Source: Candidatus Woesearchaeota archaeon (lineage in GTDB: Archaea; Nanobdellota; Nanobdellia; Woesearchaeales; JACPJR01). Taken from it: a stretch of DNA of 64,000 nt. The stretch's first letter is position 1. The number at the start of each line of letters is the position of its first letter. The stretch lies in assembly GCA_016187565.1 (NCBI GenBank), contig JACPJR010000026.1, forward strand, positions 44,232-108,231. The letters are read 5' to 3'. Of this stretch, positions 30,815 through 62,533 are shown one piece after another. The translations under genes were made by a program, and so were the position numbers. The notes beneath the pieces are model-generated. The model searched no databases and was not told the origin of the DNA. It saw only the letters and a program-made list of their open reading frames with translations.

Positions 30815-30875
30815 GAAAGAGCTAATATGGTTTTCTTATTTAAACTTTTGCTAACTCTTTTTTTGGATAAAGCTT

Positions 30876-37139: not shown

Positions 37140-37803
37140 AGGGATTCAGCAGATCATATCTACTGTTTAATCTCCCTTTGAGTTGGTCGTACACATCAAT
37201 TCCTTGTAATTCTAGGAGATATCCAAGTCTTTTAATGGTTACTTTTGAATCCATAAGGAGTGCATATCTGATAAGCTTGTCAATAGCTAACTCGTTGTTT
37301 TTCAGCGCCTCAAAACTTTCGCTTATCGGGCAATGTCGTGGCAAATACAGGGAATCGATGATTGCTTTTTCAGGTTCCGCGATAAAAAGATAATGATTGC
37401 TCTGTTGCTCTCTTCGATATCCAAAAAGATGGCGTTTTTTAAATTTGATAAAGGTAATGTCCATATTGTCGAGCCGGAGCGTTTTTTTCGAAGTTAGGCA
37501 AACTACCTTTACGACAATGGGGATTTGGGTGGTGAAGCCATAGAAAGAATAGGCACTGATGAATGAGAGATAGGAAGGAAAAATAAGGTTGGTGGCAATC
37601 GCAAGGGTATCATTTACCTTTGTGTATTTTCCCTTTTCAACCTCCTGAATAAGATTTCTTTTGATGAGCCTATGAACATAGATGCGTGCATATTCTCTGC
37701 TTTTCCCGGTGATCCTAATAATCTCATTAAGCGTGATGACGGGATTAGATATCTTTTCAAGCTCCTGAAGAAACGGTATTGCCTGCATGTACCTTTGAAG
37801 CAA
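37060..37803 (-). CDS. abiEi: AbiEi-family antitoxin / transcriptional regulator
   Basis: N-terminal winged HTH (ITLNEIIRITGKSREYARIYVHRLIKRNLIQEVEKGKY), C-terminal AbiEi_3-like domain, paired with AbiEii. Confidence 0.6.
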   Translation of the reverse strand: MLQRYMQAIPFLQELEKISNPVITLNEIIRITGKSREYARIYVHRLIKRNLIQEVEKGKYTKVNDTLAIATNLIFPSYLSFISAYSFYGFTTQIPIVVKVVCLTSKKTLRLDNMDITFIKFKKRHLFGYRREQQSNHYLFIAEPEKAIIDSLYLPRHCPISESFEALKNNELAIDKLIRYALLMDSKVTIKRLGYLLELQGIDVYDQLKGRLNSRYDLLNPFAPKTAKRSSKWRLLTNEVFANDTQR

Positions 37804-46434: not shown

Positions 46435-46540
46435 GAGCGCAACGCTCTTTTTTCTCTTTTTTTCTTTTCCTTCTTGTTGTTGTTTATCTTCATGTTCCTG
46501 ACATTCCTCTTATATGTAGGGATGAATAGTTTACGTTTAA

Positions 46541-47110
46541 TTGTCGTTGATCACCATGAAACTTCGCTCGCTGTATAGTCTGTTATCAATGGTTCTTGCA
46601 CTCTTTTTCTCTAGTTTCCTCATGCCTCAGGTAGATGGGGCTGATCTTCATGATTATCCAGATCTTTTCTTTGCTGATGGTCATTTCAATGGGCTTTTGG
46701 TGGTTGGTGATTATGCCAATGCAGCAGATGTGGTAGGTGTTACCTATGTTGCGTTGAGCTTACAGGCATACAGCAACACTGCCATTAATGTAGAGGCTGT
46801 TCGTTTGGCCTCTGAAATAACCAATGTCAGTGCCCAAAATCTGATTGTGGTTGGCGGACCTTGTATTAATACCGTTGCAGCAGAACTAATGGATTATCCA
46901 GTTCCCTGTACCAAGGGCTTCAGTCAGGGAATGGGATCTATTCAGCTTTATGAGCATCCTAATGGAAATATTGCTATTCTTGTTGCAGGATTAGAAGCCA
47001 TTGACACCAAGCGAGCAGCGCTTGTTCTGGCAAAGTACGATCAATACCAGATTTCTGGAACGAATGTTGAGGTCACGACAAGCACTGAACCACAGATTCT
47101 TATTCGGTAA
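46541..47110 (+). CDS. Minimal S-layer paralog (N- and C-terminal S-layer domains only)
   Basis: Signal peptide, then DLHDYPDLFFADGHFNGLLVVGDYANAADVVGVTYVALSLQA fused directly to AQNLIVVGGPCINTVAAEL...IAILVAGLEAIDTKRAAL; 189 aa. Confidence 0.6.
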   Translation: MSLITMKLRSLYSLLSMVLALFFSSFLMPQVDGADLHDYPDLFFADGHFNGLLVVGDYANAADVVGVTYVALSLQAYSNTAINVEAVRLASEITNVSAQNLIVVGGPCINTVAAELMDYPVPCTKGFSQGMGSIQLYEHPNGNIAILVAGLEAIDTKRAALVLAKYDQYQISGTNVEVTTSTEPQILIR

Positions 47111-47116
47111 CCTCTT

Positions 47117-47443
47117 TTACCGCAACCCATGCAGTCGCTGAACTAACTCATCAAAAATGTTCTTTTTCTTTTCACTCGATAGAGAAAATAATACTTTTTC
47201 AATCATAGCAGTCGAAACAGTAAAGATGTAGTTTAATTTAATGACACTATCCTTGAGAGCTCCATCCTTTTTTGTCAACAGTATGCCTTTCATTTCAAGA
47301 TTGCTGGTGATACCAGCGACCACTACATTATCAAATTCGCTGAACAGCACTACGGCAGGTCTTTTTTTAATCTCAAACGTATCAGTAAACTGGACATGAG
47401 CGAGAACAATATCGCCTGGCTTAGGCATTTTCCCATGCCTCAT
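47117..47443 (-). CDS. MazF/PemK-family toxin
   Basis: PKPGDIVLAHVQF...KKRPAVVL matches the PemK/MazF N-terminal consensus; 108 aa. Overlaps the upstream antitoxin by 23 nt. Confidence 0.65.
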   Translation of the reverse strand: MRHGKMPKPGDIVLAHVQFTDTFEIKKRPAVVLFSEFDNVVVAGITSNLEMKGILLTKKDGALKDSVIKLNYIFTVSTAMIEKVLFSLSSEKKKNIFDELVQRLHGLR

Positions 47444-47645
47444 CTTCTTTGTTGTCCCACAGTTCTTTCATCTTAACTTGCTGAGTTTTATGGAGAAACT
47501 CATCATATTGGTTTCTTTTCTTTATATTCTTACATGTATGAATCATCTGCTTAATCAATTCATTATAGGTCTGTCGAGGATATTCTTTCACTTCCTTTAA
47601 TGATGCTACAACGGATTTCTCAAGTTGTATAGTTGTTGCGCTCAT
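47421..47645 (-). CDS. Putative antitoxin (RHH/MazE-like) of the MazF-like toxin
   Basis: 74 aa with N-terminal beta strand TTIQLEKSVVASL followed by helices; immediately upstream of, and overlapping, the toxin. Confidence 0.5.
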   Translation of the reverse strand: MSATTIQLEKSVVASLKEVKEYPRQTYNELIKQMIHTCKNIKKRNQYDEFLHKTQQVKMKELWDNKEDEAWENA

Positions 47646-47795
47646 TATACATCACCAATAGTAGGTATATAATCAGTTATATATAAACTTTGCTTTTCTG
47701 ATGAGTGGTTGTTTTTAAATGTGTAAACAGAATAGCAAATGGAACACCAGAATTGCCTGTCCGAAACGTTTATATAGAGAAGTAACATCAACTTC

Positions 47796-47996
47796 TTGGT
47801 GAAAGATATGACAAGGACAATAACGATAAATGAAGATATTTTTCAGGAAATGATACGGAAGAAAGAAGAATTCGATGTTATTGTGGAATCAATAGAACTT
47901 ATGAATGCTCCTGAGGTGCGAGAATCAATAAGAAGGAGCAAAGAAGATATCAACGCTGGAAGAATACACAAGCTAAAGGATGTTCTCAAAAAATGA
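47796..47996 (+). CDS. Phd/RelB-like antitoxin
   Basis: 66 aa, acidic; overlaps the downstream RelE-like gene by 4 nt (ATGA). Confidence 0.5.
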   Translation: MVKDMTRTITINEDIFQEMIRKKEEFDVIVESIELMNAPEVRESIRRSKEDINAGRIHKLKDVLKK

Positions 47997-48247
47997 GTTA
48001 TGAAGTTATATTAACCGACTCTTTCTTAAAGGATGTGAAAAAATTAAAGAATAAACCACTTGAAGAGCAGGTTCTCTACAAATTACAGGAACTTGAGGAG
48101 AGTCCAGAAAGAAACAAGAAACTACAATACGAATTGAAGGATTATTATAGAATAAGAGTAGGAAAACTTCGAATTCTTTACACCATTCAAGGCAATAGAG
48201 TTTATGTTGAAGTTCTCGTCAGAGGACATAAGTACGAAGAGGTATAG
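47993..48247 (+). CDS. RelE/ParE-family toxin
   Basis: C-terminal LKDYYRIRVGKLRILYTIQGNRVYVEVLVRGHKYEEV matches the RelE/ParE consensus. Confidence 0.7.
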   Translation: MSYEVILTDSFLKDVKKLKNKPLEEQVLYKLQELEESPERNKKLQYELKDYYRIRVGKLRILYTIQGNRVYVEVLVRGHKYEEV

Positions 48248-48300
48248 GGCGGGCAATAAACCTCACATGTGTTTTTAACTGCGTCTTTCGATCGTATAGC

Positions 48301-48588
48301 TCATTTGAAGATGTCAGAAACAGACTCTATTTTAATAGTCTTTTCTTTTTTAATCTTCGCAAGTTTCTTGATAAACGCTTCCTTGAGCGGTAATTCGTCA
48401 ACAGGATGCCAGTCTATGCTCTCACAAAACGTCCAGTCGTCATCAGAAACTTCTCCGGTTTGAAGGTACTTTTCAAAAATCAGCTTCTTTCTGGTTTCTT
48501 CTTTAGCGATCTCGCTCCAATTAACCCATTCGAAATGCTTTAGCTTTTCCTTAAATTCACTGCTTATTGATAATGTTACCGATGCCAC
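48301..48588 (-). CDS. Orphan VapB-like (SpoVT/AbrB or RHH-type) small protein, GTG start
   Basis: VTLSISSEFKEKLKHFEWVNWSEIAKEETRKKL is homologous to the VapB-like antitoxin at 62306-62533 (ITLAIPEDLHTRMREHSEIRWSEVVRKTITQKI); 95 aa. Confidence 0.4.
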   Translation of the reverse strand: MASVTLSISSEFKEKLKHFEWVNWSEIAKEETRKKLIFEKYLQTGEVSDDDWTFCESIDWHPVDELPLKEAFIKKLAKIKKEKTIKIESVSDIFK

Positions 48589-48589
48589 G

Positions 48590-48745
48590 TTAGAGCGCTC
48601 CTTTATTCTTCAATTCTTCAAACTTTAGCAATTCATGTATTCTAAGCTGGAATCTCTTTTTTAGATATTCAGCTAAGTTAATTTCAGGGAATTTATCAAT
48701 TTCTTCTTTCAATTCCTTAGGTATTGATACCGTAAAGGTAGCCAT
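48590..48745 (-). CDS. Small VapB-like paralog (51 aa)
   Basis: Manual translation MATFTVSIPKELKEEIDKFPEINLAEYLKKRFQLRIHELLKFEELKNKGAL; tandem paralog of the downstream gene; not in the ORF track. Confidence 0.35.
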   Translation of the reverse strand: MATFTVSIPKELKEEIDKFPEINLAEYLKKRFQLRIHELLKFEELKNKGAL

Positions 48746-48864
48746 AGTACGAGCACCCAACTTAGTTAATACACGAGAATTCGTTTGTCTATTTAAACTT
48801 TGCTTCTTTTGAGACGTTTATCTCTCACAAAACGTCCAGTCTTCATGAGAAATTTATTTTGTGG

Positions 48865-49758
48865 TCACTTGGCATATCTATAATACATTTTCAAATATCT
48901 CTTTACTAAAGATTGTACAAAAATATAGTCTTTGTTCTTCGTCTGGCTTCTCTCGAGAGCGTTATAATAACTGTTTCGGTTTGTATACTCAATGTTTAAC
49001 ATCGGATAGCTGTGCTTATGCAATACAAAATTCATCATTAATCTTGAAATTCTTCCATTACCATCGCTAAATGGATGGATAGTTACAAATTTCAAATGAA
49101 CCAACGAAGCCAAGACTACGGGGTTTAGTTTACTTTTATTTTTATGGTACCAGCTACAAAAATCATGGAGCAAAATATCAAGCTCTGCTGGGAATGGTAG
49201 TTCTACTTTGCTTCGAGCAATAGCTACTTGATGCTTTCTTATTACCCCTGCAATATCAGGCTTGGTGTCTTGTAAAAGTAGCTTGTGCCAATAAAGTACC
49301 GTAGACAGACTTAAATCTTTCTTAGAGTCTAGCATTTCATAGAAAACTTTCCTATGAGCTTCTGCTTCTTTCACATCCTCTAGAGGCTTATTTCTGGGCG
49401 TTATGTGTTGCTGTAACAAATCAGCCGTTTCTTTCAACGACAGTGTACTACCCTCTATTCTGTTGGTGTTATACGTAAATCTAATCATAAATGATTCAAT
49501 GTGCTGTTCTCTCGCAGAAGGGGGATAGGTAGAGAAATCCTCGCTAAATTTCTTCTGAATACTCTCAAGATTTTCGTTAAATTTCTCTAAGAATAGCTCG
49601 TGCATGAATTTTTCTTTAATTAATGCTGTATTCTTAGGCTCTTCAGAACCAAGATACTTTCTTTTGTTCCTAAATCTCTTACCTTCTCTGATGGTGTGTT
49701 CGAGATAATAATAAGTCTTACCTTTAACTGTTCTTATCCTCAGGTTCACCATAAACAC
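48865..49758 (-). CDS. Fic/DOC-family protein (putative AMPylase)
   Basis: Fic motif HPFSDGNGRISR; 297 aa. Confidence 0.8.
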   Translation of the reverse strand: MFMVNLRIRTVKGKTYYYLEHTIREGKRFRNKRKYLGSEEPKNTALIKEKFMHELFLEKFNENLESIQKKFSEDFSTYPPSAREQHIESFMIRFTYNTNRIEGSTLSLKETADLLQQHITPRNKPLEDVKEAEAHRKVFYEMLDSKKDLSLSTVLYWHKLLLQDTKPDIAGVIRKHQVAIARSKVELPFPAELDILLHDFCSWYHKNKSKLNPVVLASLVHLKFVTIHPFSDGNGRISRLMMNFVLHKHSYPMLNIEYTNRNSYYNALERSQTKNKDYIFVQSLVKRYLKMYYRYAK

Positions 49759-49855: not shown

Positions 49856-52153
49856 TTAATCACAAGGTGGTCCTGGATGTGCACAATGTGTAGCAGGATC
49901 AGTAGCACTTACCGCAGCTGCTGTTGCAGTAGGATCAGGAGGTGGATCTACAGCAGTATGATCTAATGCAGCCCTCTCTTGAGCTTGTCGTTTCCAGTCA
50001 TCTCTTTCCTCTTGGGTTGGTGGATCTTTTGGTACCTCATTATAGTCCACAGGAAGTTTATCAAAGCTATAGATTTCTTCTCCACCCCATATAGCTGCAT
50101 AGGGACCTGTAGGGTAACTATCACTATCTGTGTAATAATATTTACCTTCTTTAACTCTTACCTCGTAATACTTTCCATCTGGCTGCTTGATGTACAGAGA
50201 ATTAAACTCCAAATCGCCAAACAGATCATCAAGACCAACAGCATCGGGAAGTCCAGAGTTGATGGTAATTATGTCATTCTCTGTCCTTGTCCATTCTTTT
50301 CTTGCTTCTCCTGGAGAGTTGCGGGTTTCAGCGCCAGTCTCTCCATCTGGAGCTGGTTCAGCACTTTCTTCTGCTTCGTCCTTTGTTGCATCAGCACTTA
50401 CTGCTGCTGCCTCAGGAGCACCACTCGTACCTGCAGCAGTGTCAATCGCATACCATCCATCTGGTTTCAGGGTACCTAAATCAATTGGAAATGTAACTAA
50501 CTTATTTTTATCGTTGTCCCATGCGGTTACGTCGTTGAACAGAGTTGTGGAAGTGGGATCAACACTCACTCTCATTTGATTTAGGTCATTGATGCTGGCT
50601 ATTTGACCGCCTCCTTTATTCTTACCAAGAGCGTCAAGAGGTTCTGTGGAGAAGGAGACCTGTGTTGTTGATGTTGGTTGTTTTTTTTCAGGATCTTGCG
50701 TTGTCCCTACCCATAAAGGTTGCTTATCAGGTATTCTGTTGTCATACTCGTAGAATAGCTCCTGGTTGTCAACATTGACTCTAGCTAGATCCTCTACATG
50801 ATTCTCTTCAAAGTCAAACTCTTCTGTTGTTGCCAATTGTACCTTTTGTCCTTCAATGCTGGTGTAGAGGTCTTTATACATTCCCTCTACTGCGATATCG
50901 CTCTCACCCTTCTTTTGCGTTACCTTTCCTTGTCCCAGAAGCACAGTTTCAGTGCCGGTGAAAATTGCGACTGGAGTATTTTCATCCGTTCTGAGAGTCT
51001 CTATTGCAGTTACATCTCCGTTCAAAGCCTTCTCTCCGTCAGAACCTTCTTCAACGCCAAAGAGAACCCGGAGCCCATGGTCGGGGGCATTCTCAAACCG
51101 CGTAGCCGTACCTGAAAGAGCATCGGTAGCATATGCATCACCATCTTTAATGGTTGTTTCAGTCAACGCTTGAAGTCCTTGTCGGTCACTAAATCGAATT
51201 CCAAAGTAGTTTCCTTTTCCTTTCACATCGTATTTTTTTCCATTAACCTCTGTCAGAAAGGTGAATTCAACATCCAGTGTAGAGACAATAAGATTCGCGT
51301 CAGGATTAAACGTGACCGTGGCATCATTCTTCCCGGGCTGTGCCATAATATAATCACTTTCCCGGTTAGTAAACAATTTACCTTGGATTTTCCAGTTGCT
51401 CCCTTGAGCTAATGAAAAATGTCCTTCCACGAATTCAAATCTGACTGCAGGGTGGTCAGATTCTCCTTCTACTCTACGATACGTCACCCCATCTCGGGTA
51501 ACTGTTCCAACTCCATTAATAATAAACTGATCACCTTCTAAGGTCATTGATGCTCCAGGTTCACCTCTAAATACACTATCCGTGCCTGCTACAGGAACCG
51601 TGACTTTTCCTCCTTTATCAGCGAATGTTACCTTAATTGAGTCCCCCTGCTCAGGATATCCCTCGTTAACGACAGTAATCATTGCTGCACTGTCAAACTC
51701 ACAGGTCTTTCCTTGATAGATACTCTGACAATATTTCTCGGCAATGGTTTTATCTTTCTCAGCAGTCATACCATCTGGGAATAAGGTTGATGAGGTTAGG
51801 TAGTTGTGTGCATTATTGAGGGTGTTGTCTGTGTAGGTCTCACCACTATCACTGCTTTCCAAATATCGTTGAAAGAGATCCTTATTGCTCTCACTGACCT
51901 CGGGTTTATTTTCAAAATAGGTCTTTGCATAGTCTCCTTTATAGTTGGCTGTTAACCATTTCGGACAACTCTCTGGGTTAGTTTCACACCAGGTACTAAA
52001 ATCTTCAACATTTTCACCAGTAAATTGTTGGTTTCCATCGTCAGAGTCACCCCCCCCGACATCTGTTTCTGCAGAGATGAGGGGTGAGAACACCACTAAC
52101 ACTACAAGTAACGTTATCCATAATGGTATCATCATTTGTTTCATCGTTATCAA
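49856..52153 (-). CDS. Large secreted protein (operon member H), Cys-containing C-terminus
   Basis: Signal peptide MITMKQMMIPLWITLLVVLVVFSPLISA. 765 aa. Pro/Ala/Thr-rich C-terminal tail ending CAHPGPPCD. G8 homopolymer near the 5' end. Confidence 0.6.
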   Translation of the reverse strand: MITMKQMMIPLWITLLVVLVVFSPLISAETDVGGGDSDDGNQQFTGENVEDFSTWCETNPESCPKWLTANYKGDYAKTYFENKPEVSESNKDLFQRYLESSDSGETYTDNTLNNAHNYLTSSTLFPDGMTAEKDKTIAEKYCQSIYQGKTCEFDSAAMITVVNEGYPEQGDSIKVTFADKGGKVTVPVAGTDSVFRGEPGASMTLEGDQFIINGVGTVTRDGVTYRRVEGESDHPAVRFEFVEGHFSLAQGSNWKIQGKLFTNRESDYIMAQPGKNDATVTFNPDANLIVSTLDVEFTFLTEVNGKKYDVKGKGNYFGIRFSDRQGLQALTETTIKDGDAYATDALSGTATRFENAPDHGLRVLFGVEEGSDGEKALNGDVTAIETLRTDENTPVAIFTGTETVLLGQGKVTQKKGESDIAVEGMYKDLYTSIEGQKVQLATTEEFDFEENHVEDLARVNVDNQELFYEYDNRIPDKQPLWVGTTQDPEKKQPTSTTQVSFSTEPLDALGKNKGGGQIASINDLNQMRVSVDPTSTTLFNDVTAWDNDKNKLVTFPIDLGTLKPDGWYAIDTAAGTSGAPEAAAVSADATKDEAEESAEPAPDGETGAETRNSPGEARKEWTRTENDIITINSGLPDAVGLDDLFGDLEFNSLYIKQPDGKYYEVRVKEGKYYYTDSDSYPTGPYAAIWGGEEIYSFDKLPVDYNEVPKDPPTQEERDDWKRQAQERAALDHTAVDPPPDPTATAAAVSATDPATHCAHPGPPCD

Positions 52154-53181
52154 CCGGTTACATTAATCATAAGCATGATAAAGTCTGAGGCATTCAAGGG
52201 ATCGGTAACCGTCACAATAGGTGTGTAAAGACCGGACTCAGTAGGGGTAAAGCTCACCATTCCCTCAGCATTAATCGTTGCTTGGTCATCGAGAATTGCA
52301 TAGGTTAAGGGATCATGGTCAGGATCAACCGCAGTGATGTTCAGAAGAATTAAGCCAAGCGGTGCTTCATGGTATGGTTCTATGGTAATGATAGGCGCTC
52401 TGTTTCCTAGGCCAGGCTGCATCTGGACGGCAAAACTAAATTGTAACGGATAACCATTCAGTTGCGTGGTGTCCTCTCGTATGGTGACTACCTTCTCATA
52501 GGTGTCAAGATGATACACCGCTACATCTACGGGTTGTGCGGCAATACCGCTTAAGTCTATCATAGTGGGATCTGCAGCAAAGAGATCAACAACAGCATGC
52601 CCGACCGTAAGGACCTTGCCAAGAGGAACTGGAACAAGAACATTAAATGCATCTATCTGCTGCTCATTTCCTGGCGTAGCAATGGTGAGGGGGAATTGTG
52701 TCTGTACAAGGACATCTTCTTCACGGATTTGTACCGTGCTCTGCAAGGTTCCATAATTTGTAATGTTGTATCCCGGCAGGTTGTCTTCTAAGGCAAGAAT
52801 ACAGGAAAGGGCGAATTGATCAACATAGTCGGCAATCTGCTGGGCGATGAGCGTCGTAGAGGGTGAAATATCATTTCCCTGGTAAAACCAGTAAGAGGTG
52901 TTGGCGTAGAAGGTTGCAAGGGTTGGGATAGAAGGAGGAATCCAGATATAGCCTCCTTGAAATCCTGAGAAAAAAAGAGCATTCTTCGCTTCATTGCTCA
53001 GACAAGATTCCACATAGACCTGGGCAGTTGGCGCAACAACCAGTGATTCTTGCGCCTGTTCTTGTTGCTTTTTGGTTTCAGTGGTTGTTTTTCCTTTCGT
53101 GAGCGTAAATAAGGTACCAACCACAATAACGAGAACAATACCCACTATCAAGAACAAGGTTATTTGACCCTTTGTACTCAT
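52150..53181 (-). CDS. Type IV pilin-like protein with class III signal peptide and cadherin/Big-like C-terminal domain
   Basis: MSTKGQITLFLIVGIVLVIVVGTLF matches the archaeal prepilin motif (K-G-Q then hydrophobic helix). C-terminal DPDHDPLTYAILDDQATINAEG resembles cadherin-like repeats. Confidence 0.6.
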   Translation of the reverse strand: MSTKGQITLFLIVGIVLVIVVGTLFTLTKGKTTTETKKQQEQAQESLVVAPTAQVYVESCLSNEAKNALFFSGFQGGYIWIPPSIPTLATFYANTSYWFYQGNDISPSTTLIAQQIADYVDQFALSCILALEDNLPGYNITNYGTLQSTVQIREEDVLVQTQFPLTIATPGNEQQIDAFNVLVPVPLGKVLTVGHAVVDLFAADPTMIDLSGIAAQPVDVAVYHLDTYEKVVTIREDTTQLNGYPLQFSFAVQMQPGLGNRAPIITIEPYHEAPLGLILLNITAVDPDHDPLTYAILDDQATINAEGMVSFTPTESGLYTPIVTVTDPLNASDFIMLMINVTG

Positions 53182-54032
53182 GCGTTAGCCTCTTTTGTGG
53201 TTATTTTTTGAGATATAGAGCCAGAGCTTCCTTTTATACCTTTTGGTTTTATGGACTTTGTTTTGATTGTTATTCTGCTCGATGCCACTGTGGTGATGAC
53301 TTGGATGAAAAACAGCCGTGCCCAATCCAGATAGGCAAGGAACAGAAGAGCAATACAACCATACCATACGCCTGCTGGCAGTCCTTGCAAGGCAAAGATG
53401 AGAATGAAGAGCAGTACACCACCAACGCTTATAATTATAAGAGGGATAATAAATCGATGGATCTTGAAGAGCACGTGCATACTCTGAGCGAGTGATTTTT
53501 TGATCTGTTGTGGATCAAGAAGTGTGGAGAGAATGACCGTACCATAAACGTAAAGCGGGAGAAGGATGTACACCATGGTCCAGAAGAAGGCTTGTTCCTG
53601 TTGGATGGTGAGTAAGAGCAACAGAAACATTGCCCATAAAAGAAACCAGCCGGTCTTCATAAGAAAGAGCACACTGAAAAAACGTGCAGTATAGCGTTGT
53701 TGCATACAGTAGCGATAGATCCATCCCTTGATAATGGAGGAGAGCAAGAGAGTAGCAAGGATTGTCAAGAGCGTGATAAAGACAAATCGATAGGCTATCC
53801 CTTGCACAAAGGTAAGTAAGAGAGCAGGATCGTCAAACTGTCCAGGTTCTGTATTGAGAATGCCTGCACTATACGTGAGATAGCCATACCAAAGCAAGGC
53901 AATGAGGATGACATACACCAGATCAAGAGCAAGACCAACAAGTAACTGCTTTCCATCAAAACTCTTCTTGAGTTCTTTGAGGGCAAGAAGATCTCCAAGG
54001 CGAGAGGTGTTAAGGAATGGTGCGCTCATCAT
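53178..54032 (-). CDS. Polytopic membrane protein (operon member)
   Basis: ~8 TM helices. Start placed at an internal Met to avoid a 77-nt overlap. Confidence 0.5.
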   Translation of the reverse strand: MMSAPFLNTSRLGDLLALKELKKSFDGKQLLVGLALDLVYVILIALLWYGYLTYSAGILNTEPGQFDDPALLLTFVQGIAYRFVFITLLTILATLLLSSIIKGWIYRYCMQQRYTARFFSVLFLMKTGWFLLWAMFLLLLLTIQQEQAFFWTMVYILLPLYVYGTVILSTLLDPQQIKKSLAQSMHVLFKIHRFIIPLIIISVGGVLLFILIFALQGLPAGVWYGCIALLFLAYLDWARLFFIQVITTVASSRITIKTKSIKPKGIKGSSGSISQKITTKEANA

Positions 54033-54951
54033 CACTACCTCCACCGTCACCCGGCCCAATATCTGGCGCTTCCCCTTGTGGAGCACTATAACTTAACATT
54101 CCTTCAACAAACTCATCCTGGTTAAGCAGAGGAACACAGACAGGATCTTCAATATCTTCCGCAGTATAACTTGCAGCCAAGTCTGGATTGTAATCTTCAA
54201 TATACCGGACACAGAGATCAGTCCAGTATGGCTGGTCTTGAGCAACATTTTTGTCACTATAACTACTCGAGGTTTCATTCAGATAAAACTGGAAGAATCC
54301 ACTTGCAGCTCCCTGCTGATTTCTGAGAAGGGTTCCACTCTTATTGATGACTGCATAGGTATTGGGGATGTTTCTGTTTTTCAAGTAAAGAGTAAAGTAG
54401 ATGCTATCTCCGAGAGACCAGTCGAGTTTGTAGGAAAAGGTATCATCTCCTGTTTGGTAGTACCATTCTCCTGCAAGATAAACTGCATAGCGTCCAAATC
54501 CCTGGGAATCAACACGAAGCATTGCATCTTCAGGCACTCCTAAACCAAAATCAGACTTCTGGCACATCCACAATTCCCAGACAAAAGGATCTGCAAAATC
54601 ATAAGGAAGTCGCCGTTCTTTTTCATAGTCAGTCCATCCGAGTTTTTCAGCAAGGTAGATTGAACTTGGATCTGGGGTTCGGAAAAATTGTTGTCCAGAA
54701 GGAACGCCAACCCCACCAAAGATGAAATTACACCATCCAGACCAACCTCTGTCTGAACCCTCAGTTGGAGCTGAACACGCTTTATCAGAGTGTACTACTG
54801 GACTTACGGTTGTTCCTATCCCTGCGTCTCCTCTTGTCTCCCCTTCATCCGGCCTATCACCTGTCCCTTCCACCCCTTGTGGTAGCACCAAGAGTATGCT
54901 TGTTGCTACTACTATCATCACCACTATGTTGAGGTATGCTCTGGAGTTCAT
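54010..54951 (-). CDS. Secreted protein with C-terminal PDIGPG-Gly-rich motif
   Basis: Signal peptide IVVMIVVATSILLVLPQGVEG; Trp/Tyr-rich beta domain; ends ...APDIGPGDGGGSDDERTIP. Confidence 0.55.
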   Translation of the reverse strand: MNSRAYLNIVVMIVVATSILLVLPQGVEGTGDRPDEGETRGDAGIGTTVSPVVHSDKACSAPTEGSDRGWSGWCNFIFGGVGVPSGQQFFRTPDPSSIYLAEKLGWTDYEKERRLPYDFADPFVWELWMCQKSDFGLGVPEDAMLRVDSQGFGRYAVYLAGEWYYQTGDDTFSYKLDWSLGDSIYFTLYLKNRNIPNTYAVINKSGTLLRNQQGAASGFFQFYLNETSSSYSDKNVAQDQPYWTDLCVRYIEDYNPDLAASYTAEDIEDPVCVPLLNQDEFVEGMLSYSAPQGEAPDIGPGDGGGSDDERTIP

Positions 54952-54957
54952 GTTGTC

Positions 54958-57900
54958 TCACCCTGAAGGCCCAATGTCTGGCCCTCCACCTTCTTCTCCT
55001 CCTTCTTGATCTTCTTCACGCTTTTCAAGGGCATCAAGGACTTCCTTGACATCTTCTTGGCCACAGATATCATCTTCTCCTTTGAACATGTTCTTGAAAC
55101 TATCTGCTTTAAAGATTGATGCAATATTGTTGGTGTAGCTTTCATGATCGGCAAAGGTCATATAGGAATCAAAAAGAGCACAGCCCATGTTGGTGATGGT
55201 CATGGGATTCTCTAAGGTAGATGCCTTACAGACCGGCGTACTTAGTTGCGTATTATAGTCAGCACAGACAAATCCTCGAGCCTGTTGGATTGCAAACGCC
55301 GTAGGATGGTTAAGAATGGTTTGCACCCACTCAGCCATTCGTTCAAGGACAAGAAAGGCACCAAAGCTGCGGGCAATACTTCCCCAGGTATAGACACATT
55401 GCGCAATCGCTAATCCTTCTTCACAACTGGCAAATCGCTGTAATCCGCTCTTGCTCTGCTCAGCCATACAATCAACATAGGCACATTCAAGTTGCTGTAG
55501 TCTATTGAGATGGTAGATAATGCCAGGCACACAAAAACAGCCAATACTTACAATAATACTGTCCTCTGGCCGTGGATATGCAGAAAAGGCATTTCGTAGA
55601 TCTTCGGTAGTAGGAATGGGTCGTACATTCTTTTCTGTCCCTGTTTTTTCCTGAGCGGAGTCTGTTATTTGTTTATCAAATGGTAAGAATGTTTCAGGGT
55701 CAAAGAGATAATCACTTCCAGGAAATCTGTTCCATGTATACCCCTCACTGTCAACTTCCCCACCCCAGAGATTCGTTTGTGGATTAGGATCACATTGCGC
55801 ACAACTCACCGCAGCACAGGCCTGTTTGAGAAACTTACCTCCACCTGTTGGTTCACCAGATGACTCTTTTCCAAATAATTTTCCAATGCTCGTCAGTTTC
55901 GTACTCTGAATATTACACATAATCTCATTATACTTGTCCCAAAGGTTTTGTGCAGCCGGAGGATCAAAGGCATAAATAACCCCGCTGATGGCATAGACAA
56001 CTGCTCTGGTCTGGGCCATGAGTTTGTACAGTGCAGACAGTACACCTTCCAACTCGCAGATATTATTGAGAATGGTAAAGAGTTTATTGAGCCCATTGAC
56101 CCATTCTTGCCCTGCACGAACCCAATGCCTATGTTCATTAATCTTGTCCAAAAACGCATCATCAACACTATCTAAAGGAACATTATAGATCTGGACCGCA
56201 AAACTCACGTTCTCAAGCTCTGGATTTCTCAGAGCCTGTTCTTGATAGATATAGTCGAGGTAGAAGATACAATCAAAGGGAACCTCTGGGCCGATCTCAG
56301 AGAAATCCGTTGTTTTGAAATCAATCCGCAATACTGCAGTCCATTCGTCTAAGGAAGGATCATATACCGGATCAGCATAGAGATAGGGCTCGTCAGAAAA
56401 TTCAGAGGCGTAATTACATTGTTCTCTGACGACTGCCTTGAGATCATCTCCGTTAATGCTTGCTCCTGCTTTCTCCCTAAGATGCACGACGGCAAATGCC
56501 TTCAGCGGAAAGCGTTGCGCAGTTAATGCATCTAATTTGTAGTTGTCCGGAATAAAGGAAACCGTGTTGGTAAAATGGTCAGGAAATTCCTCAGTAGAAA
56601 CACCATAGATCCTGAGCGTTGTTTCTTGGGTTGCCGTGTTGCCCACCATATCACTGATAGAAAATTTCACACTCACCTCTCCGCTTGTTGCTCGTACATC
56701 AGTAATCGTCCAGGTACAGGTTTGCGTATTGTTAATGGTCTTAGGACTGCATTGATCTGCAGGGATCTTAATCGCTCCTGGTTTAATCCGTGAAAAATCT
56801 CCAGAGGTAGTACTGCCATCTTCAGCTACCTGACTGTGGATTTCTTCAATCTCGGCAGTAAAGAGTAGGGTATCACCATCCTTAAAATAGTCCTTTCCTT
56901 CATCGGTTGCTACGGTAATGCTGAGAATTTCTGGTGGCGTTTCATCATACACGAAGCTTCCTCGAATTTCGCCTTCAATAGGATTACCAGCATCATCCTG
57001 CGAAGGGGTGGTGAGAAAGATATCAACCGTTCTTCCACTCACTAAGGAAACTCCCTTTCGCAGATTATACCAACGGCAGCTCCAGAGTTCGCCTGCTGCC
57101 GTGCAATCATTACTTCCAACCCGTTGCCAGGCGCTTCCCATAAAGCCACTTAAATCTACGGTTACATAATGCACCTCTTGATTATTGATGCTCATGGTCT
57201 TGGTAAATCCTGCGCCAGGAGATTGCAGGACTATGGTAAGATTATTGCTATCAGGTCCTAAGAAACATGCCTCGTTAATGCACATGCCGCTTTGAATTCC
57301 CAAACCTTCAGGTCCGCTATCATCAATGGTAAAGGTGACGGTCTGTTCTGCAGCGACGTTATTCCCTCCAACATCAGTCAGATTAAAACGCAAGACAGCA
57401 CTCTCGCTGTTCATCTTCAAATGGATGCGCTCAAAGGTACAGGTGTAGGTTTCTTCACTGGTCTCACAATCAACCTGGATTCCTGCGCCACTATTGGGAA
57501 AGGGAATTGCTTTATAGCTCTCGGCAAAGCTTCGGTCATCATTAAGATAAGAGAGATCAGCAATACTTTCGACAAGATTTTCTTCCCTAAAGACGACTTC
57601 AACATCAACGACTTGTTCTCGGTTCCCTTCTAAGGAGATGTATCGTACTTCTTCGCCAGACTGATCATCCAGTATGCTAACGCTTTCCAATGCAGGGTCC
57701 TCAAGATCAATAGTATAGCGTATATGATCGCTCTCGGTTGCTTGACTAAAGAGATCATAAACTCTAACGTACAGATCAGTTTCTCCTGAGGTAACACCGT
57801 CAAGAACAAGCCCGGTTGCATAGCTGCAATTTTGGGTATTGGGACGATCAAGACCAACAACATCACCATTCGCATAGATCTCAAGATACGAAATGCCTGT

Positions 57901-58482
57901 ACATTTTCCTTCACATTCAGGATCTTGGCATGCAGTATCAGCAACAGAGATATTTGCTGTTACTTTTTTGTTTCCCTGGGTGATATTAAAGAGGGTTATG
58001 GTTGGAGGAAGCTCTTCAGGATAGACCATAACAGGACCAAAGACATCAAGCGGATCACTGACACCGGGAGTAAAATAATAAAAGGTAAATCCATAGGGAT
58101 CCTCAGGAATAAAACTGGAGTCCGTACACGTACATTCTTGGCCAACAACAGTTGGGCTGGAATAAGCTGCACAGGAAGTACCTCCATTACAAAAGTTGCG
58201 ACCAAAAACAACATTGTTTACCTTAATCTGGTCTGGCTCAACAGTATCATTGGTTTCAACAATGACCTTGTAGGTTAAGATATCATCTTGGCGATGATAT
58301 TGAGCAGTGCCATCAATACCGGTTACTGTTGCATTAAAAATAGTGTTTGGTTGAGCAAAAATCGGCGTAATCAAGGATAAACTGATGACTAAGCTTGCCA
58401 TCAACAAAGCTATACTTTTTTTGAGATCTACGGTTCTTGTGAAATCCATGATCCTTAGGGGCATAAATAAGTTTCTCCTCAA
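54958..58482 (-). CDS. Giant secreted Cys-rich protein with C-terminal GGGPDIGPSG motif
   Basis: 1174 aa. N-terminal signal/TM KSIALLMASLVISLSLITPIFA. Ig-like beta-rich N-terminal two-thirds. Cys-rich ~400-aa C-terminal domain ending EEGGGPDIGPSG. Confidence 0.65.
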   Translation of the reverse strand: MRRNLFMPLRIMDFTRTVDLKKSIALLMASLVISLSLITPIFAQPNTIFNATVTGIDGTAQYHRQDDILTYKVIVETNDTVEPDQIKVNNVVFGRNFCNGGTSCAAYSSPTVVGQECTCTDSSFIPEDPYGFTFYYFTPGVSDPLDVFGPVMVYPEELPPTITLFNITQGNKKVTANISVADTACQDPECEGKCTGISYLEIYANGDVVGLDRPNTQNCSYATGLVLDGVTSGETDLYVRVYDLFSQATESDHIRYTIDLEDPALESVSILDDQSGEEVRYISLEGNREQVVDVEVVFREENLVESIADLSYLNDDRSFAESYKAIPFPNSGAGIQVDCETSEETYTCTFERIHLKMNSESAVLRFNLTDVGGNNVAAEQTVTFTIDDSGPEGLGIQSGMCINEACFLGPDSNNLTIVLQSPGAGFTKTMSINNQEVHYVTVDLSGFMGSAWQRVGSNDCTAAGELWSCRWYNLRKGVSLVSGRTVDIFLTTPSQDDAGNPIEGEIRGSFVYDETPPEILSITVATDEGKDYFKDGDTLLFTAEIEEIHSQVAEDGSTTSGDFSRIKPGAIKIPADQCSPKTINNTQTCTWTITDVRATSGEVSVKFSISDMVGNTATQETTLRIYGVSTEEFPDHFTNTVSFIPDNYKLDALTAQRFPLKAFAVVHLREKAGASINGDDLKAVVREQCNYASEFSDEPYLYADPVYDPSLDEWTAVLRIDFKTTDFSEIGPEVPFDCIFYLDYIYQEQALRNPELENVSFAVQIYNVPLDSVDDAFLDKINEHRHWVRAGQEWVNGLNKLFTILNNICELEGVLSALYKLMAQTRAVVYAISGVIYAFDPPAAQNLWDKYNEIMCNIQSTKLTSIGKLFGKESSGEPTGGGKFLKQACAAVSCAQCDPNPQTNLWGGEVDSEGYTWNRFPGSDYLFDPETFLPFDKQITDSAQEKTGTEKNVRPIPTTEDLRNAFSAYPRPEDSIIVSIGCFCVPGIIYHLNRLQQLECAYVDCMAEQSKSGLQRFASCEEGLAIAQCVYTWGSIARSFGAFLVLERMAEWVQTILNHPTAFAIQQARGFVCADYNTQLSTPVCKASTLENPMTITNMGCALFDSYMTFADHESYTNNIASIFKADSFKNMFKGEDDICGQEDVKEVLDALEKREEDQEGGEEGGGPDIGPSG

Positions 58483-58501: not shown

Positions 58502-59380
58502 TTATGATGGTTTCATCATGTAGGGGTAGGCTTGTGAAAAATCCTCAACAGCCATCATGATATTCATCTCCTCAATGCGGATGGGTAAGGGTAACTTAAA
58601 GACATAAAAGGTTATCTCTTCCTGAGCCAGCATCTCCTTGGTAATGGTAATGTTCCCGACAGCACCTCCAATAAGTGCAGGGTTTAAGGTTATGGAAGGA
58701 ACCGTTACCTTTTCCTCGTCTCCAAGACAACCAAATATATTGGCGAGGATCTGCAGAGCAAAAATAACGCTTACAATGGCTATGCCAATAGGACCTGCTG
58801 CAGCCAAAGGCGCTGCAATACTTGAAAGTACCGGGATAGAGGCAGCGGCAAGATAGCTTGCTCCGACACTAATGCCTGCTGCAATAGCTGCATCTTTTGC
58901 CGTATCACCGGTCTGTTTCCATCCCCCACCAGTCAGACCTTTACAGTAGGAAATCTGATATTCAGGAATGGTCACATTTTCATACAACAACAACTGTGCT
59001 TCCATGCGATAAGTCCCAGGAATGAGCGGAACAACAACCGTCTTATTTTTTTCATCGCCTTTTTTAATCACATACTGTTGAAAAGGAGCATCGCCAGGGT
59101 CAGTGCTTATGCGTTCCAGTATCAATAACACTTGCTCTGCTCTTTCGACAGGGCTTGTTTCTGTTGCCAATAATTGCCGTCGTTGTTCTAAGGTAGGGGC
59201 TTGCTGCAGCGCGTAGATATTATCAAAGTCTCTTTCCTTTAAAACAACATTCTGGTAATCAAGCGGCTCAAGGTCTACGGTAATTGGCTTCGTACTCAGA
59301 AGGGATGCCGTGGTCACGGGCAAAAAAAACAGAAGGAGACAGCAACAGAGAACACTTATACGCATCAGTAACGGTTTCAT
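58502..59380 (-). CDS. Secreted protein with C-terminal Ala/Gly-rich hydrophobic anchor
   Basis: Signal peptide MKPLLMRISVLCCCLLLFFLPVTTA. C-terminal AAIAAGISVGASYLAAASIPVLSSIAAPLAAAGPIGIAIVSVIFAL. Confidence 0.55.
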   Translation of the reverse strand: MKPLLMRISVLCCCLLLFFLPVTTASLLSTKPITVDLEPLDYQNVVLKERDFDNIYALQQAPTLEQRRQLLATETSPVERAEQVLLILERISTDPGDAPFQQYVIKKGDEKNKTVVVPLIPGTYRMEAQLLLYENVTIPEYQISYCKGLTGGGWKQTGDTAKDAAIAAGISVGASYLAAASIPVLSSIAAPLAAAGPIGIAIVSVIFALQILANIFGCLGDEEKVTVPSITLNPALIGGAVGNITITKEMLAQEEITFYVFKLPLPIRIEEMNIMMAVEDFSQAYPYMMKPS

Positions 59381-61011
59381 TGTTCAACCACCACCGAAAG
59401 CTCCTCACCTATCTTCGTATCAACGACCACTGAATAGTCAAGATAATCCTGCTTGCTCATGGTGAGGACACCATTTAAGCAGACAGGTAATTGTTTGGTT
59501 ATTCGTGCTTTTTCTTCATCGTCAAGAGAGGTCACTCCAACAAAGAGGCTGCGTGCGCCACAGGCATACATGACCTGAACACCGGGCAATGCCTGTTTTG
59601 TTTGCTTATCCCGTGTTTCAATGGTCACATTGCCACTCAATCGTTGATTCCGCTGGTCAAAGAGGGATTGTTCTCCTAACAAAGGCTCTCCTAGTTGATA
59701 GTCTGTAGTAAGTGCCCAGTTATCACGAATGTTTGTTTCTATGGCAAACTGGAAATGATATCCCTGTCCAGCAAATGCATCATCATCACGTAAGGTTACT
59801 AATACCGGGAAGCTCACATCATATGAAAACTCATACCGCTGGATAAATACTTGGAGAAGACCTTGTAAACTCTGCTGTGAGATCGTGCTTGCCGTGATAA
59901 GCTCACCTTCACGTGGCGTAATGTCAAAATAAACAGGCCACCCTAAATAAAAGAAATCAACGCTATAGGGATAGGGCTTTTCAAGAATCGTGATGACGAA
60001 CATATCGAGAACACCCTGTTGTTCATTCGTCAAGACCGCGTTATTTTCAACACGGTATCTTCGATAACCAGTCGTGTTCGGAATCTGGATGGCCTGGATA
60101 TAGTTGGGCAAAATGAGCTCTTCGATGACCTCTTGAACTTCAGTCTTTATCCAAGGTGCTCGTATGCCGCCAGGGCCAAAGGTTGTGGCAGCAAAGGGTG
60201 GCAGAGGTTTTTCCACACCAGAATACAATGCAATAAGGTTTAAGGTAACGTCCTCAATATATGCCCAGGCAATCTCCTCATTCACGATTTTTGTGGAAAG
60301 CTCGTACATTGCAAAGAGAGGAACATCGATAATACTAATGAATGCATCAAGATCATAGATTTTTTCTCCACGCTGTACGGTTAAGGGGTAGGAGATCTCG
60401 ACAACCACATCCTTCTGCGTCACTATGGTTAAGGGTTGGATATCTCCTGTTTCGGTAATCACCATGCCTTGTTGGGCAAATGGTTTAAAGTCATCAAGGC
60501 AAGCAGGTAGCTCTCGTTGTATCCACCGATCCAATTGTGCTTCCATGGACTTATCGTTTGACGTTCTCATTCCTTCTTGTTGCGTGCTTTTAAGCAAAGG
60601 TCTTCCGCGATCAGAAAACTGACAATCCTTGGTACAGTCATTCCTGCTTTTCAGGTACCACCAGTATGGTACACGTAAGGGACCAAAATCAATAAGCTCT
60701 GACTCTGTTGGTACAGAAGAATAGTGAAAGCTGCTGCCGCTTAAGGTTTCATCAGTAAGACTAATCCACCCTCCCTGCATACCCATAATCTTCAAGCCCT
60801 TCACCGTAACATCAGTAACACAGTTCTCCACATAATCCTGTATTGGTTGCACTTCGGGAGGAACCTTTACTTCTTCTCGTACGGGTGGTTTATATTCGCT
60901 GACTCTGGACTTAATAAAAAAGATAAGGAATGAGGAAAAAATCAAGAGGAGTCCAATAAGCAAAAAAACCGTTACCTGTGCTTTTCTTCCTCTTTTTTTA
61001 TTTGATGGCAT
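59377..61011 (-). CDS. Large pilin-like protein with class III-type signal peptide
   Basis: From the internal Met: MPSNKKRGRKAQ|VTVFLLIGLLLIFSSFLIFFI (charged, then A-Q, then hydrophobic helix). The ORF-track start at 61074 would overlap the upstream gene by 77 nt. ~544 aa extracellular domain. Confidence 0.5.
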   Translation of the reverse strand: MPSNKKRGRKAQVTVFLLIGLLLIFSSFLIFFIKSRVSEYKPPVREEVKVPPEVQPIQDYVENCVTDVTVKGLKIMGMQGGWISLTDETLSGSSFHYSSVPTESELIDFGPLRVPYWWYLKSRNDCTKDCQFSDRGRPLLKSTQQEGMRTSNDKSMEAQLDRWIQRELPACLDDFKPFAQQGMVITETGDIQPLTIVTQKDVVVEISYPLTVQRGEKIYDLDAFISIIDVPLFAMYELSTKIVNEEIAWAYIEDVTLNLIALYSGVEKPLPPFAATTFGPGGIRAPWIKTEVQEVIEELILPNYIQAIQIPNTTGYRRYRVENNAVLTNEQQGVLDMFVITILEKPYPYSVDFFYLGWPVYFDITPREGELITASTISQQSLQGLLQVFIQRYEFSYDVSFPVLVTLRDDDAFAGQGYHFQFAIETNIRDNWALTTDYQLGEPLLGEQSLFDQRNQRLSGNVTIETRDKQTKQALPGVQVMYACGARSLFVGVTSLDDEEKARITKQLPVCLNGVLTMSKQDYLDYSVVVDTKIGEELSVVVEQ

Positions 61012-61765
61012 TGTAGCAGGTAAATTTGTAAAACTCTGATTGAATTTCATTACAGGCTGTTTGTACGTTTTCATTATGACGGTGGATTAAGGCAACGGTT
61101 ACCAGGCATAGATCGTTCTGTTTTTCTCGTGTTAAGCATACTACCTTTGCTTCGGTAAAGTCAAAGCCTTCAAGTTCCTGAACGATTTGATCGATGTTTT
61201 TGGTGAGCGAGAGATAAAGGCCAATGGCTGAGCTCAGAAGGATTAACAACATGATACATCCTATGACAATGATACTGTGGGCAAAGAAAACATCCTTGCG
61301 TTCAGGAGAAAAATATGTTTTCTTAAGGAAATAGCTTCTCCTGTTGTGGACATACCAGAGCGTAAGTCCATTGAGAATGACGGTAACAAGCAATGCTCCA
61401 AGAATCAGTTGTTCCATAAAGCCAAAGATACTGAACTTTAAGAATGCTACTGAGATGAGTGAATTCAGGACGCTGAGGGAATAGAGAACAAAAGCCAAAT
61501 AATAGGACCATGATTTTTGTTCAGCAATACCATACACCAGCACGGCAATAATGACGGTCGTAAGAATATTGACGTCTCGTGCTGCATTGCCAATCAGCAT
61601 TTTGCCTGCAAGCATGGTGCTGGGCACGTAGATCGCTAAGAAGAGATAAAATACTCCAAGAATAAGAGAATAAATGATCAGCACTCGGACTGCATACGGC
61701 CTCTCTTTTTTAAAAGGCTGAGCTACTTTTTCAATCTGCCCCTTCCTCTCTTTTTTCATTCGCAA
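60998..61765 (-). CDS. Polytopic membrane protein (first gene of surface operon)
   Basis: 255 aa, ~7 TM helices, basic N-terminus. Confidence 0.55.
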   Translation of the reverse strand: MRMKKERKGQIEKVAQPFKKERPYAVRVLIIYSLILGVFYLFLAIYVPSTMLAGKMLIGNAARDVNILTTVIIAVLVYGIAEQKSWSYYLAFVLYSLSVLNSLISVAFLKFSIFGFMEQLILGALLVTVILNGLTLWYVHNRRSYFLKKTYFSPERKDVFFAHSIIVIGCIMLLILLSSAIGLYLSLTKNIDQIVQELEGFDFTEAKVVCLTREKQNDLCLVTVALIHRHNENVQTACNEIQSEFYKFTCYNAIK

Positions 61766-61871: not shown

Positions 61872-62309
61872 CTATTTGGTTTTTTCTTTTTCTTCAGGAA
61901 AAAACAGTTTTACAATATGCTTTGTCTTAAAAACTCTAACTTTATTCTGTTTTTCAAGATGAGGGTCATCTGACCACATCTTAGAATTTTCAATGCCAAA
62001 AGCAGTTGCCAAGAAAACAACATCATCAGGATCAATTTTTCCAAGAAGTTTATCAACTTCTTCTATTTTAAGCTTAATCTGCTCTTCTGGGACTAAAGTA
62101 ATATGCTTTAGTAAATGATTTAACAATTCTGTATATTCTTCTTCATTCATTCCAGATTTTTCTAGAACTAAATCTTTATACTTCCTTATCTCGTGGAAAG
62201 AAGATTCTGGATAGAAAAAGTCCCAGCCAGACTCAACAATAATCTTTCTTACAGTAGAATCCCTAATAAGACTAGCAAGAAGGATATTAGAGTCAATGAC
62301 AAGAATCAT
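61872..62309 (-). CDS. vapC: PIN-domain toxin VapC
   Basis: MILVIDSNILLA N-terminal PIN motif and DDVVFLATAF C-terminal motif; 145 aa; overlaps vapB by 4 nt. Confidence 0.65.
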   Translation of the reverse strand: MILVIDSNILLASLIRDSTVRKIIVESGWDFFYPESSFHEIRKYKDLVLEKSGMNEEEYTELLNHLLKHITLVPEEQIKLKIEEVDKLLGKIDPDDVVFLATAFGIENSKMWSDDPHLEKQNKVRVFKTKHIVKLFFPEEKEKTK

Positions 62310-62533
62310 CTTCTTAGACCGAGTTTTCTTGCAACTGCACTATCTACTTTATTAGCAATTTCATCTACATCTTTTTGTGTTAATTTACTCTTAGCAGTTA
62401 GTTTGTCCATAACATCTAAATCTTCTATCTTCTGGGTTATAGTTTTTCTAACTACTTCACTCCACCTAATCTCAGAGTGTTCTCTCATTCTTGTGTGTAA
62501 ATCTTCCGGTATTGCTAATGTTATATTTGGCAT
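62306..62533 (-). CDS. vapB: VapB-like antitoxin
   Basis: 75 aa, ITLAIPEDLHTRMREH beta-strand/helix N-terminus; upstream of, and overlapping, vapC. Confidence 0.55.
   Translation of the reverse strand: MPNITLAIPEDLHTRMREHSEIRWSEVVRKTITQKIEDLDVMDKLTAKSKLTQKDVDEIANKVDSAVARKLGLRR

Follow-up and report, generated by a model that had tools for sequence, protein, structure and literature searches.

The 64-kb window analysed here, a stretch of 64,000 nucleotides from a Candidatus Woesearchaeota metagenome-assembled genome (MAG), contains on its minus strand an operon with two genes for pilin-like proteins of one family, which we call the A and B paralogs. The subject of this work is the B paralog, an open reading frame (ORF) at 52150..53181 that starts with ATG and encodes a protein of 343 amino acids (aa) with the N-terminus MSTKGQITLFLIVGIVLVIVVGTLFTLTKGK (MSTKG|QITLFLIVG..., where the bar marks the predicted cleavage site). 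The product is identical to the NCBI entry HYW21_07215, a "hypothetical protein" from a Candidatus Woesearchaeota MAG, encoded on a contig of 129.5 kb. The start of the gene shares an ATGA with the stop of the preceding gene, its stop overlaps with the beginning of the following gene, which encodes a 765-aa protein, and a GAGG lies 9 nucleotides 5' of its start codon. No earlier start is possible in frame; since the first possible start is this ATG, with the GAGG upstream and the ATGA overlap, the leader can comprise at most M-S-T-K-G. The ratio of nonsynonymous to synonymous substitutions (dN/dS) is 0.12 against an ortholog with 81% identity (P0002 in the related locus L001), which indicates a real gene under purifying selection. 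A single-sequence search with the 343-aa protein matched only the protein itself and that ortholog, and the family described below was reached through paralog A and profile searches, not from the 343-aa sequence alone.

Five regions can be distinguished in the protein, all encoded on the minus strand. A leader, M1-G5 (53167..53181), ends at a predicted class III (prepilin) cleavage site between G5 and Q6, and is followed by a hydrophobic helix, Q6-L27 (53101..53166), that is predicted to be retained in the mature protein and carries the conserved positions Q+1, T+3, F+5 and G+9, counted from the cleavage site. A linker rich in K, T, E and Q (aa 28-49; 53035..53100), which corresponds to gappy columns in our alignment A3, connects the helix to the head domain that defines the family (aa 50-258; 52408..53034). 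The C-terminus is formed by a Big_9, cadherin-like immunoglobulin (Ig) domain (aa 261-333; 52183..52401). With a 343-aa precursor and a leader of 5 aa, the mature protein would be far larger than typical pilins, as the preliminary description of this sequence had stated.

The tetrapeptide K4-G5-Q6-I7, at the end of the 5-aa leader, opens onto a hydrophobic stretch of 22 residues with a mean Kyte-Doolittle hydropathy of 2.7. The FlaFind-type motif, which Szabo and colleagues reportedly defined in 2007 as [KR][GA][ALIFQMVED][ILMVTAS] near the N-terminus, occurs as K-G-Q-I in the 343-aa protein and as K-A-Q-V in paralog A. When the six frames of the window were scanned with a FlaFind-like pattern, eight ORFs were returned, and the combination of K-[GA]-Q with a strongly hydrophobic 20-mer behind it was found only in 52150..53181 and 59377..61011. 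The remaining secreted proteins of the operon carry ordinary Sec-type signals.

The second of these ORFs, at 59377..61011 on the minus strand, is a paralog of the first: in a BLASTP comparison, aa 44-199 of the 343-aa protein align with aa 66-265 of the 565-aa ORF (E-value 9e-8). It had been proposed that this gene bears a similar signal if it is started at an internal Met, and NCBI does start it there, giving a protein of 544 aa (HYW21_07240, 100% identity and coverage) with the leader MPSNKKRGRKA|Q, the signal RGRKA|QVTVFLLIG, the same head and a family-specific C-terminal region. A word-indexed search found 49 relatives of the 544-aa protein, all of them unnamed or from Woesearchaeota and none with a Pfam domain. 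When a database of 1.84 billion representatives was searched with a profile of the shared N-terminal region, 9,310 cluster representatives matched at E<=1e-3, of which 7,310 reached E<=1e-10 and 2,090 reached E<=1e-30. With a single exception, the top 150 matches began at the extreme N-terminus of the protein. In a scan of one genome per species, the family was present in 220 genomes, whose titles are Woesearchaeota, Nanoarchaeia or Nanoarchaeota.

The identity of the signal is supported by its conservation in more than 250 distinct relatives. In a logo that draws on 80 loci and comprises 115 distinct ORFs of the family, position -2 is K or R in 110, position +1 is Gln in every one, position +3 is T, S or A, position +5 is Phe in 107 and position +9 is Gly in 101; position -1 is G in 48, A in 39 and S in 28, counts that reflect a regular expression accepting G, A or S alone at this position, by which three further family ORFs with T were excluded. 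The Gln +1 column is invariant in three independent alignments. The same site pattern was reproduced in 141 further representatives sharing at most 50% pairwise identity, with a median leader of 6 aa, and position +5 was F or Y in 121 of 134 sequences from this second set. The diagnostic signal of the family can be written as [KR][GAS]|Q-x-T-x-F-x-x-x-G, and its conservation lies far beyond chance.

The deciding control is the specificity of the signal. A [KR][GAS]Q at the N-terminal edge of the first hydrophobic stretch was found in 110 of 126 family genes, compared with 8 of 283 non-family genes from the same loci, each of which also begins with a hydrophobic stretch. Pilins of the lineage itself account for six of these eight: small proteins (63-175 aa; for example MVMKKKAQ|AAMEFLMTYG... 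and MRKAQ|ASIEVV...) encoded immediately next to a T2SSE ATPase gene and a pair of split T2SSF platform genes. In Methanococcus maripaludis, the Epd processing sites are KGQI, KGQV or RAQI, with a short basic leader and an obligatory Gln +1 (PMC4371748); the experimentally mapped site of EpdE is KGQI, and the pilin peptidase EppA requires Gln +1 (PMC4371748). The tetrapeptide of the 343-aa protein is identical to the EpdE site. Because of the conservation in the logo, the pilin-like specificity and this identity, the assignment of the N-terminus as a class III signal is strongly supported and we consider it very probable, the cleavage itself being a prediction. The preliminary claim that the N-terminus fits the archaeal prepilin motif holds. 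The closer likeness to Methanococcus pilins claimed there is partial: it extends to the KGQI site and Gln +1, and fails at position +5, where Phe replaces Glu, and in the linker between helix and head.

Family members are 250 to more than 900 aa long, their domain architecture behind the head is highly variable (343 to more than 900 aa), and each locus carries two to four divergent paralogs. In most genomes the B paralog has about 630 aa and a C-terminal region that resembles that of A; in the 343-aa form of the window this region is replaced by one Ig domain, an architecture also present in P0061 (329 aa). Head-only paralogs of 253-256 aa occur near the cluster described below (L040:3962-4732, L028:5886-6656, L077:6281-7042), some with Thr at -1 (KKT|Q). 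A subfamily of about 615 aa with the signal NKAQ|TSFFVIAGLIM... (L040:6308-8149(-), L030:195-2075(-)) shares the beta-rich end of its head with the 343-aa protein. These two types constitute third and fourth paralogs near the cluster in some genomes.

A full-length AlphaFold2 model of the 343-aa protein, built from an alignment of 27 sequences, has a mean predicted local distance difference test score (pLDDT) of 68.5. In this model, the N-terminal helix is confident over its hydrophobic part (pLDDT 78-95) and is followed by a confident alpha/beta core and a beta-rich C-terminus, with strands across residues 264-341. Residues 31-49 have low confidence (pLDDT <50) and coincide with the K/T/E/Q-rich linker, whose length varies in homologs. 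When residues 44-258 were modelled alone from 37 sequences (predicted template modelling score 0.73), the head was confident at residues 44-208, where a helix and a loop with short strands are followed by a second helix, a four-stranded antiparallel sheet and a further helix. The only two cysteines of the protein, C60 and C127, sit in the first two helices of this model and are invariant in the alignment. Since they are invariant and the sole cysteines, a C60-C127 disulfide and an extracellular location are likely. The extracellular-type features of the protein comprise these two cysteines, the Ig domain and an excess of N-x-S/T sequons (five observed against 2.1 expected).

The head has no relative in Pfam, NCBIfam or among the PDB sequences, and nothing meaningful came from PDB sequence searches with the head, with the A family or with G, the giant protein of the operon. 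We regard it as a novel domain of about 160-210 residues with two invariant cysteines; from the models, it is not demonstrably a pilin fold. In the type IV pilin fold, the C-terminal half of a long N-terminal helix packs against an antiparallel sheet of 4-5 strands. Of the structure expected in the preliminary description, the models show the N-terminal helix and the beta-rich C-terminus; the head, with its four-stranded sheet, gave no significant similarity to solved pilins.

Big_9 (PF17963) is the sole Pfam domain above threshold in the protein (aa 261-333, E-value 2.7e-6, 28.6 bits against a gathering threshold of 23.6 bits), and an acidic string, DPDHDPLTY, lies within it at aa 285-293. 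A Foldseek search with the full-length model retrieved only Ig-type modules (E-values from 4e-4 to 4e-3), among them the cadherin-like modules of SraP (4e-4), cadherin-23, Rib and PKD. The cadherin- or Big-like C-terminus that had been recognized by eye is thus confirmed, at the level of profile and predicted structure, as an adhesion-type Ig-like beta-sandwich with a DxDxD-type acidic loop.

The operon runs along the minus strand from 61765 to 49856, and its junctions overlap or nearly abut. It begins with a 255-aa membrane protein (60998..61765) that has five transmembrane segments and a Cys-rich C-terminus, and whose place beside A is conserved in 10 loci or more. Paralog A is followed by a protein of 292 aa (58502..59380) that combines a Sec-type signal with a hydrophobic C-terminal region and has homologs in 18 loci, and then by G, a 1174-aa protein with a Sec signal (54958..58482). 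Next come a poorly conserved 313-aa secreted or anchored protein (54010..54951) and T (53178..54086), a 302-aa polytopic membrane protein with about six transmembrane segments that belongs to no known family and precedes the B paralog in relatives. The 343-aa protein itself stands after T, and the operon closes with the 765-aa protein (49856..52153), which carries a Sec signal and is lineage-specific. The gene order in L001 is identical.

The cluster recurs across Woesearchaeota. In distant genomes, A is followed by G, a large variable protein (L), T and B, in this order. A G-like gene stands directly after A in 68 of 82 loci, while in the window the 292-aa gene intervenes. Where at least 9 kb of downstream sequence was available (37 loci), the exact series G-L-T-B was the commonest arrangement, with 11 loci, and about half of the loci contained T followed by B. 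G proteins are rich in Ig domains, with Big_3_3 in 16 of 29 members and Big_13 in 7 of 29. The alignment of the G family (A7) contains about 20 invariant cysteines, most of them in the C-terminal third, which also holds hydrophobic segments; this Cys-rich C-terminal module may be where G docks to A, B or T. Of the 80 loci with the cluster, about 25 bear the title 'uncultured Methanosarcinales archaeon' (MAGs from co-assemblies; L004, L008, L014, L016, L019, L020, L023 and others), names that look wrong because gene content and synteny match Woesearchaeota. We found no description of the family or of the A-G-L-T-B cluster in the open-access literature searched.

Two membrane proteins of the operon were considered as the missing prepilin peptidase and rejected. 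A24 peptidases have two conserved catalytic Asp residues, the second of them in a GxGD motif. T is not an evident A24 peptidase, since it has a single conserved Asp (D55); there is no GxGD and no Pfam hit in its 26 members. The 255-aa protein likewise has no GxGD and no Pfam or NCBIfam hit.

In 5 of about 80 loci, a filament operon is found at a distance of 5-8 kb; it consists of one ATPase (T2SSE), a split platform (two T2SSF genes) and small pilins with Glu +5. In the other 75 loci, no filament machinery was found within 10 kb of the cluster. This layout of a single ATPase with a split platform has been reported as 'system 1' for methanogens and DPANN archaea (preprint 10.64898/2026.04.22.720090). 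The small pilins combine Gln +1 with Glu +5 (L005:331-858(-), L006:128-652(-), L010:654-1181(-), L010:95-532(-), L020:1-316(-)); they also adjoin a 600-650-aa protein with an N-terminal region resembling a helix-turn-helix, in an operon similar to those of Epd or 'system 1'.

We propose that the 343-aa protein is a type IV pilin-like subunit without Glu5, processed by a class III peptidase and acting as a minor or tip adhesin, a reading that we favour while judging its chances to be about even. The protein would insert into the membrane through its hydrophobic helix, and a prepilin peptidase of the EppA/PibD type, encoded elsewhere, would remove MSTKG on the cytoplasmic side. The helix would remain part of the mature protein and serve for incorporation into a type IV filament or else as a membrane tether. 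The mature protein, beginning with Gln and lacking Glu5, would then act like the bacterial PilX and GspK, priming or capping a short type IV filament produced by Epd-like 'system 1' machinery. It and paralog A would jointly hold at the distal end the co-encoded giant Ig proteins, which would be exported by Sec and serve as PilY1 analogues, and the complex as a whole would serve in adhesion, a host cell being a plausible target.

A minor or tip role is favoured because the subunits PilX and GspK, which lack Glu5, sit at the tip and are clustered with PilY1, which carries a Sec signal. In bacteria, PilX and GspK are located at the tip without Glu5, and the adhesin PilY1 has a Sec signal and is encoded in a cluster with the Glu5-less subunits that present it (PMC7541494). 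The woesearchaeal cluster shows the same association of Glu5-less class III proteins with giant proteins bearing Sec signals. The filament operon near the cluster in five loci speaks for this reading as well. The role as adhesive tip or minor pilin, raised in the preliminary description, is strengthened by this context and can reasonably be inferred.

Several results weigh against this proposal. The Pfam model of the class III signal (PF04021, Class_IIIsignal) did not match the first 40 residues of the protein significantly (E-value 1.7); this 27-position model is a weak test, since a small pilin of the lineage reaches only 0.044. Glu +5, which is typical of EppA substrates and is present in the small pilins of related woesearchaeal loci, is replaced in the family by a near-invariant Phe. 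No prepilin peptidase, ATPase or platform gene was found in the 64-kb window or in about 8 kb to its left, where ribosomal and riboflavin genes lie without pilus genes; to the right, where only about 0.8 kb could be gained, there were no pilus genes either. The cognate peptidase that the preliminary description had suggested looking for was also not found in 1.29 Mb of related loci, in which a regular-expression scan detected no GxGDxK membrane protein. Linkage to a filament operon is limited to five loci of a single clade among the roughly 80. Lastly, the head has no significant similarity to any solved pilin, and it is separated from the membrane helix by a floppy low-complexity linker of about 20 residues, unlike in classical pilins; a linker as flexible as the model indicates would be atypical for subunits that pack into a filament.

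These points leave room for other explanations, of which a processed but unassembled protein, although rather unlikely in our estimate, deserves the most weight. Here the helix would tether the 343-aa protein and paralog A, as has been proposed for the sugar-binding proteins of the Sulfolobus bindosome, and the two would form an immobile stalk or scaffold carrying the giant Ig proteins at the cell surface. This fits the 75 of about 80 loci without an adjacent filament ATPase, the long flexible linker with its large multi-domain ectodomain and the conserved polytopic T, which could be a membrane partner; moreover, class III signals are known on non-pilin surface proteins (PMC4371748). Against it stand the conservation of helix positions +3, +5 and +9, with the filament-type packing that it suggests, and the lack of a detectable substrate-binding domain. 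Membership among the solute-binding proteins of bindosomes was in fact rejected, given that there is neither such a domain nor an ATP-binding cassette (ABC) transporter nearby. It also counts against this reading that bindosome components themselves still depend on an ATPase/platform pair of the filament type.

If, on the other hand, the N-terminus were an uncleaved signal anchor of a type II membrane protein, K-G/A/S-Q-x-T-x-F-x-x-x-G would be a helix-interaction motif. This would account for Phe instead of Glu at +5, the unmatched PF04021, a head that is not demonstrably of a pilin fold and the absence of a peptidase nearby, in the window, the 8 kb to its left and the related loci alike. It is hard to reconcile with the conservation at -2, -1 and +1, because an anchor gives no reason for K or R, G/A/S and Gln at these positions in proteins that are only 20-35% identical; the same pattern is otherwise nearly confined, in this lineage, to the small pilins of filament operons, and the leaders are very short (median 6 aa). 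We therefore hold an uncleaved anchor to be distinctly unlikely. As for A and B being the major subunits of a new, thick, Woesearchaeota-specific filament, the abundance of the family (the 9,310 representatives at E<=1e-3) and the stand-alone head-only forms of 253-256 aa would agree with it. Such a role fits poorly with the variable architectures behind the head (343 to more than 900 aa), and the two to four divergent paralogs per locus, the flexible linker, the missing Glu5 and the existence of small canonical Glu5 pilins in the same lineage speak against it as well, which makes it highly improbable.

Comparison with known systems helps to place the protein. It resembles the Epd pilins EpdA-E in its short basic leader, its Gln +1 site and the hydrophobic helix that follows, and the machinery found near the cluster in relatives, one ATPase with a split platform ('system 1'), is also like that of Epd systems. 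Unlike the Epd pilins, which are small and have Glu +5, the family has Phe +5, 250 to more than 900 aa, an unrelated head and no match to PF04021. Since it lacks Glu +5, is not small and has a head that is not demonstrably a pilin fold, the 343-aa protein should be classified as a pilin-like protein (class III signal) and assigned to a new family, separate from the Epd pilins. With the sugar-binding proteins of the Sulfolobales bindosome it shares a class III signal on a large globular extracellular protein whose gene lies away from the filament machinery. It differs from them in having no solute-binding domain or ABC transporter and in its Gln +1 site, as opposed to the permissive PibD pattern. 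Finally, in the archaeal type IV filament loci of systems 2 and 4G (preprint 10.64898/2026.04.22.720090), pilin-like proteins are likewise encoded together with large, adhesin-like Ig-fold proteins and extra membrane proteins; these loci, which occur in other phyla, are defined by their ATPase and platform protein, and neither the A-G-L-T-B cluster nor its head is described there in the text searched.

In the window, the cluster is flanked by genes of toxin-antitoxin or defence type, on one side (47117-49758) by MazF/PemK (47117-47443), ParE (47993-48247) and Fic (48865-49758), and on the other by PIN_2 and a ribbon-helix-helix protein (61872-62533), with AbiEii/AbiEi further off (36318-37803). 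The methionyl-tRNA synthetase gene adjoins the cluster in 28 relatives and does not do so in the window, so that the cluster seems to have been relocated in this genome. No tRNA genes were found in the window, and nothing in composition separates the cluster from the other parts, which range from 44 to 46% GC. The rest of the window is an ordinary archaeal chromosome, with genes for GatE, aIF2-alpha, GINS, Rpo subunits, ribosomal proteins and S-layer proteins.

Other genes of the cell envelope and membrane were also observed there. Two adjacent S_layer_C proteins (822 aa and 189 aa) are encoded at 43966-47110 on the plus strand, and a 661-aa DUF11 protein, a further cell-envelope gene, at 24546-26531 on the minus strand. 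A MoxR-type AAA ATPase (29762-30814) and a VWA protein (28582-29814) stand directly downstream of a 1183-aa protein without a Pfam match (30876-34427), all on the minus strand (28582-34427), as a MoxR-VWA module with a giant uncharacterised partner. Two genes for Na+/H+ exchangers, one with a TrkA_N domain, lie 5 kb apart at 13655-15442 and 20122-21990, both on the minus strand.

Woesearchaeota rank with the most abundant of the uncultured DPANN archaea, and we know of no described mechanism by which they attach to their partners. In our view the single gene is a modest finding, and the family and its cluster are more valuable: the cluster probably builds a cell-surface attachment device. Going further, and only tentatively, we suggest that A-G-L-T-B may represent an undescribed, Woesearchaeota-wide surface organelle for host attachment, composed of two pilin-like proteins that lack Glu5 and have a new head fold, T and the Ig-rich giants, which would be primed by canonical type IV filament machinery or be independent of it and would form the contact apparatus of these episymbiotic DPANN archaea. 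Should the proteins merely be anchored in the membrane, the annotation of the family and cluster would still be useful, though unsurprising. The work supplies a candidate for attachment that is defined by sequence, namely a family of thousands of proteins without a Pfam entry, a diagnostic signal and a cluster of five genes. Class III signals would thereby extend to large, modular, adhesin-like proteins of DPANN archaea, and the arrangement points to an archaeal equivalent of the tip complex of minor pilins and PilY1 in bacteria.

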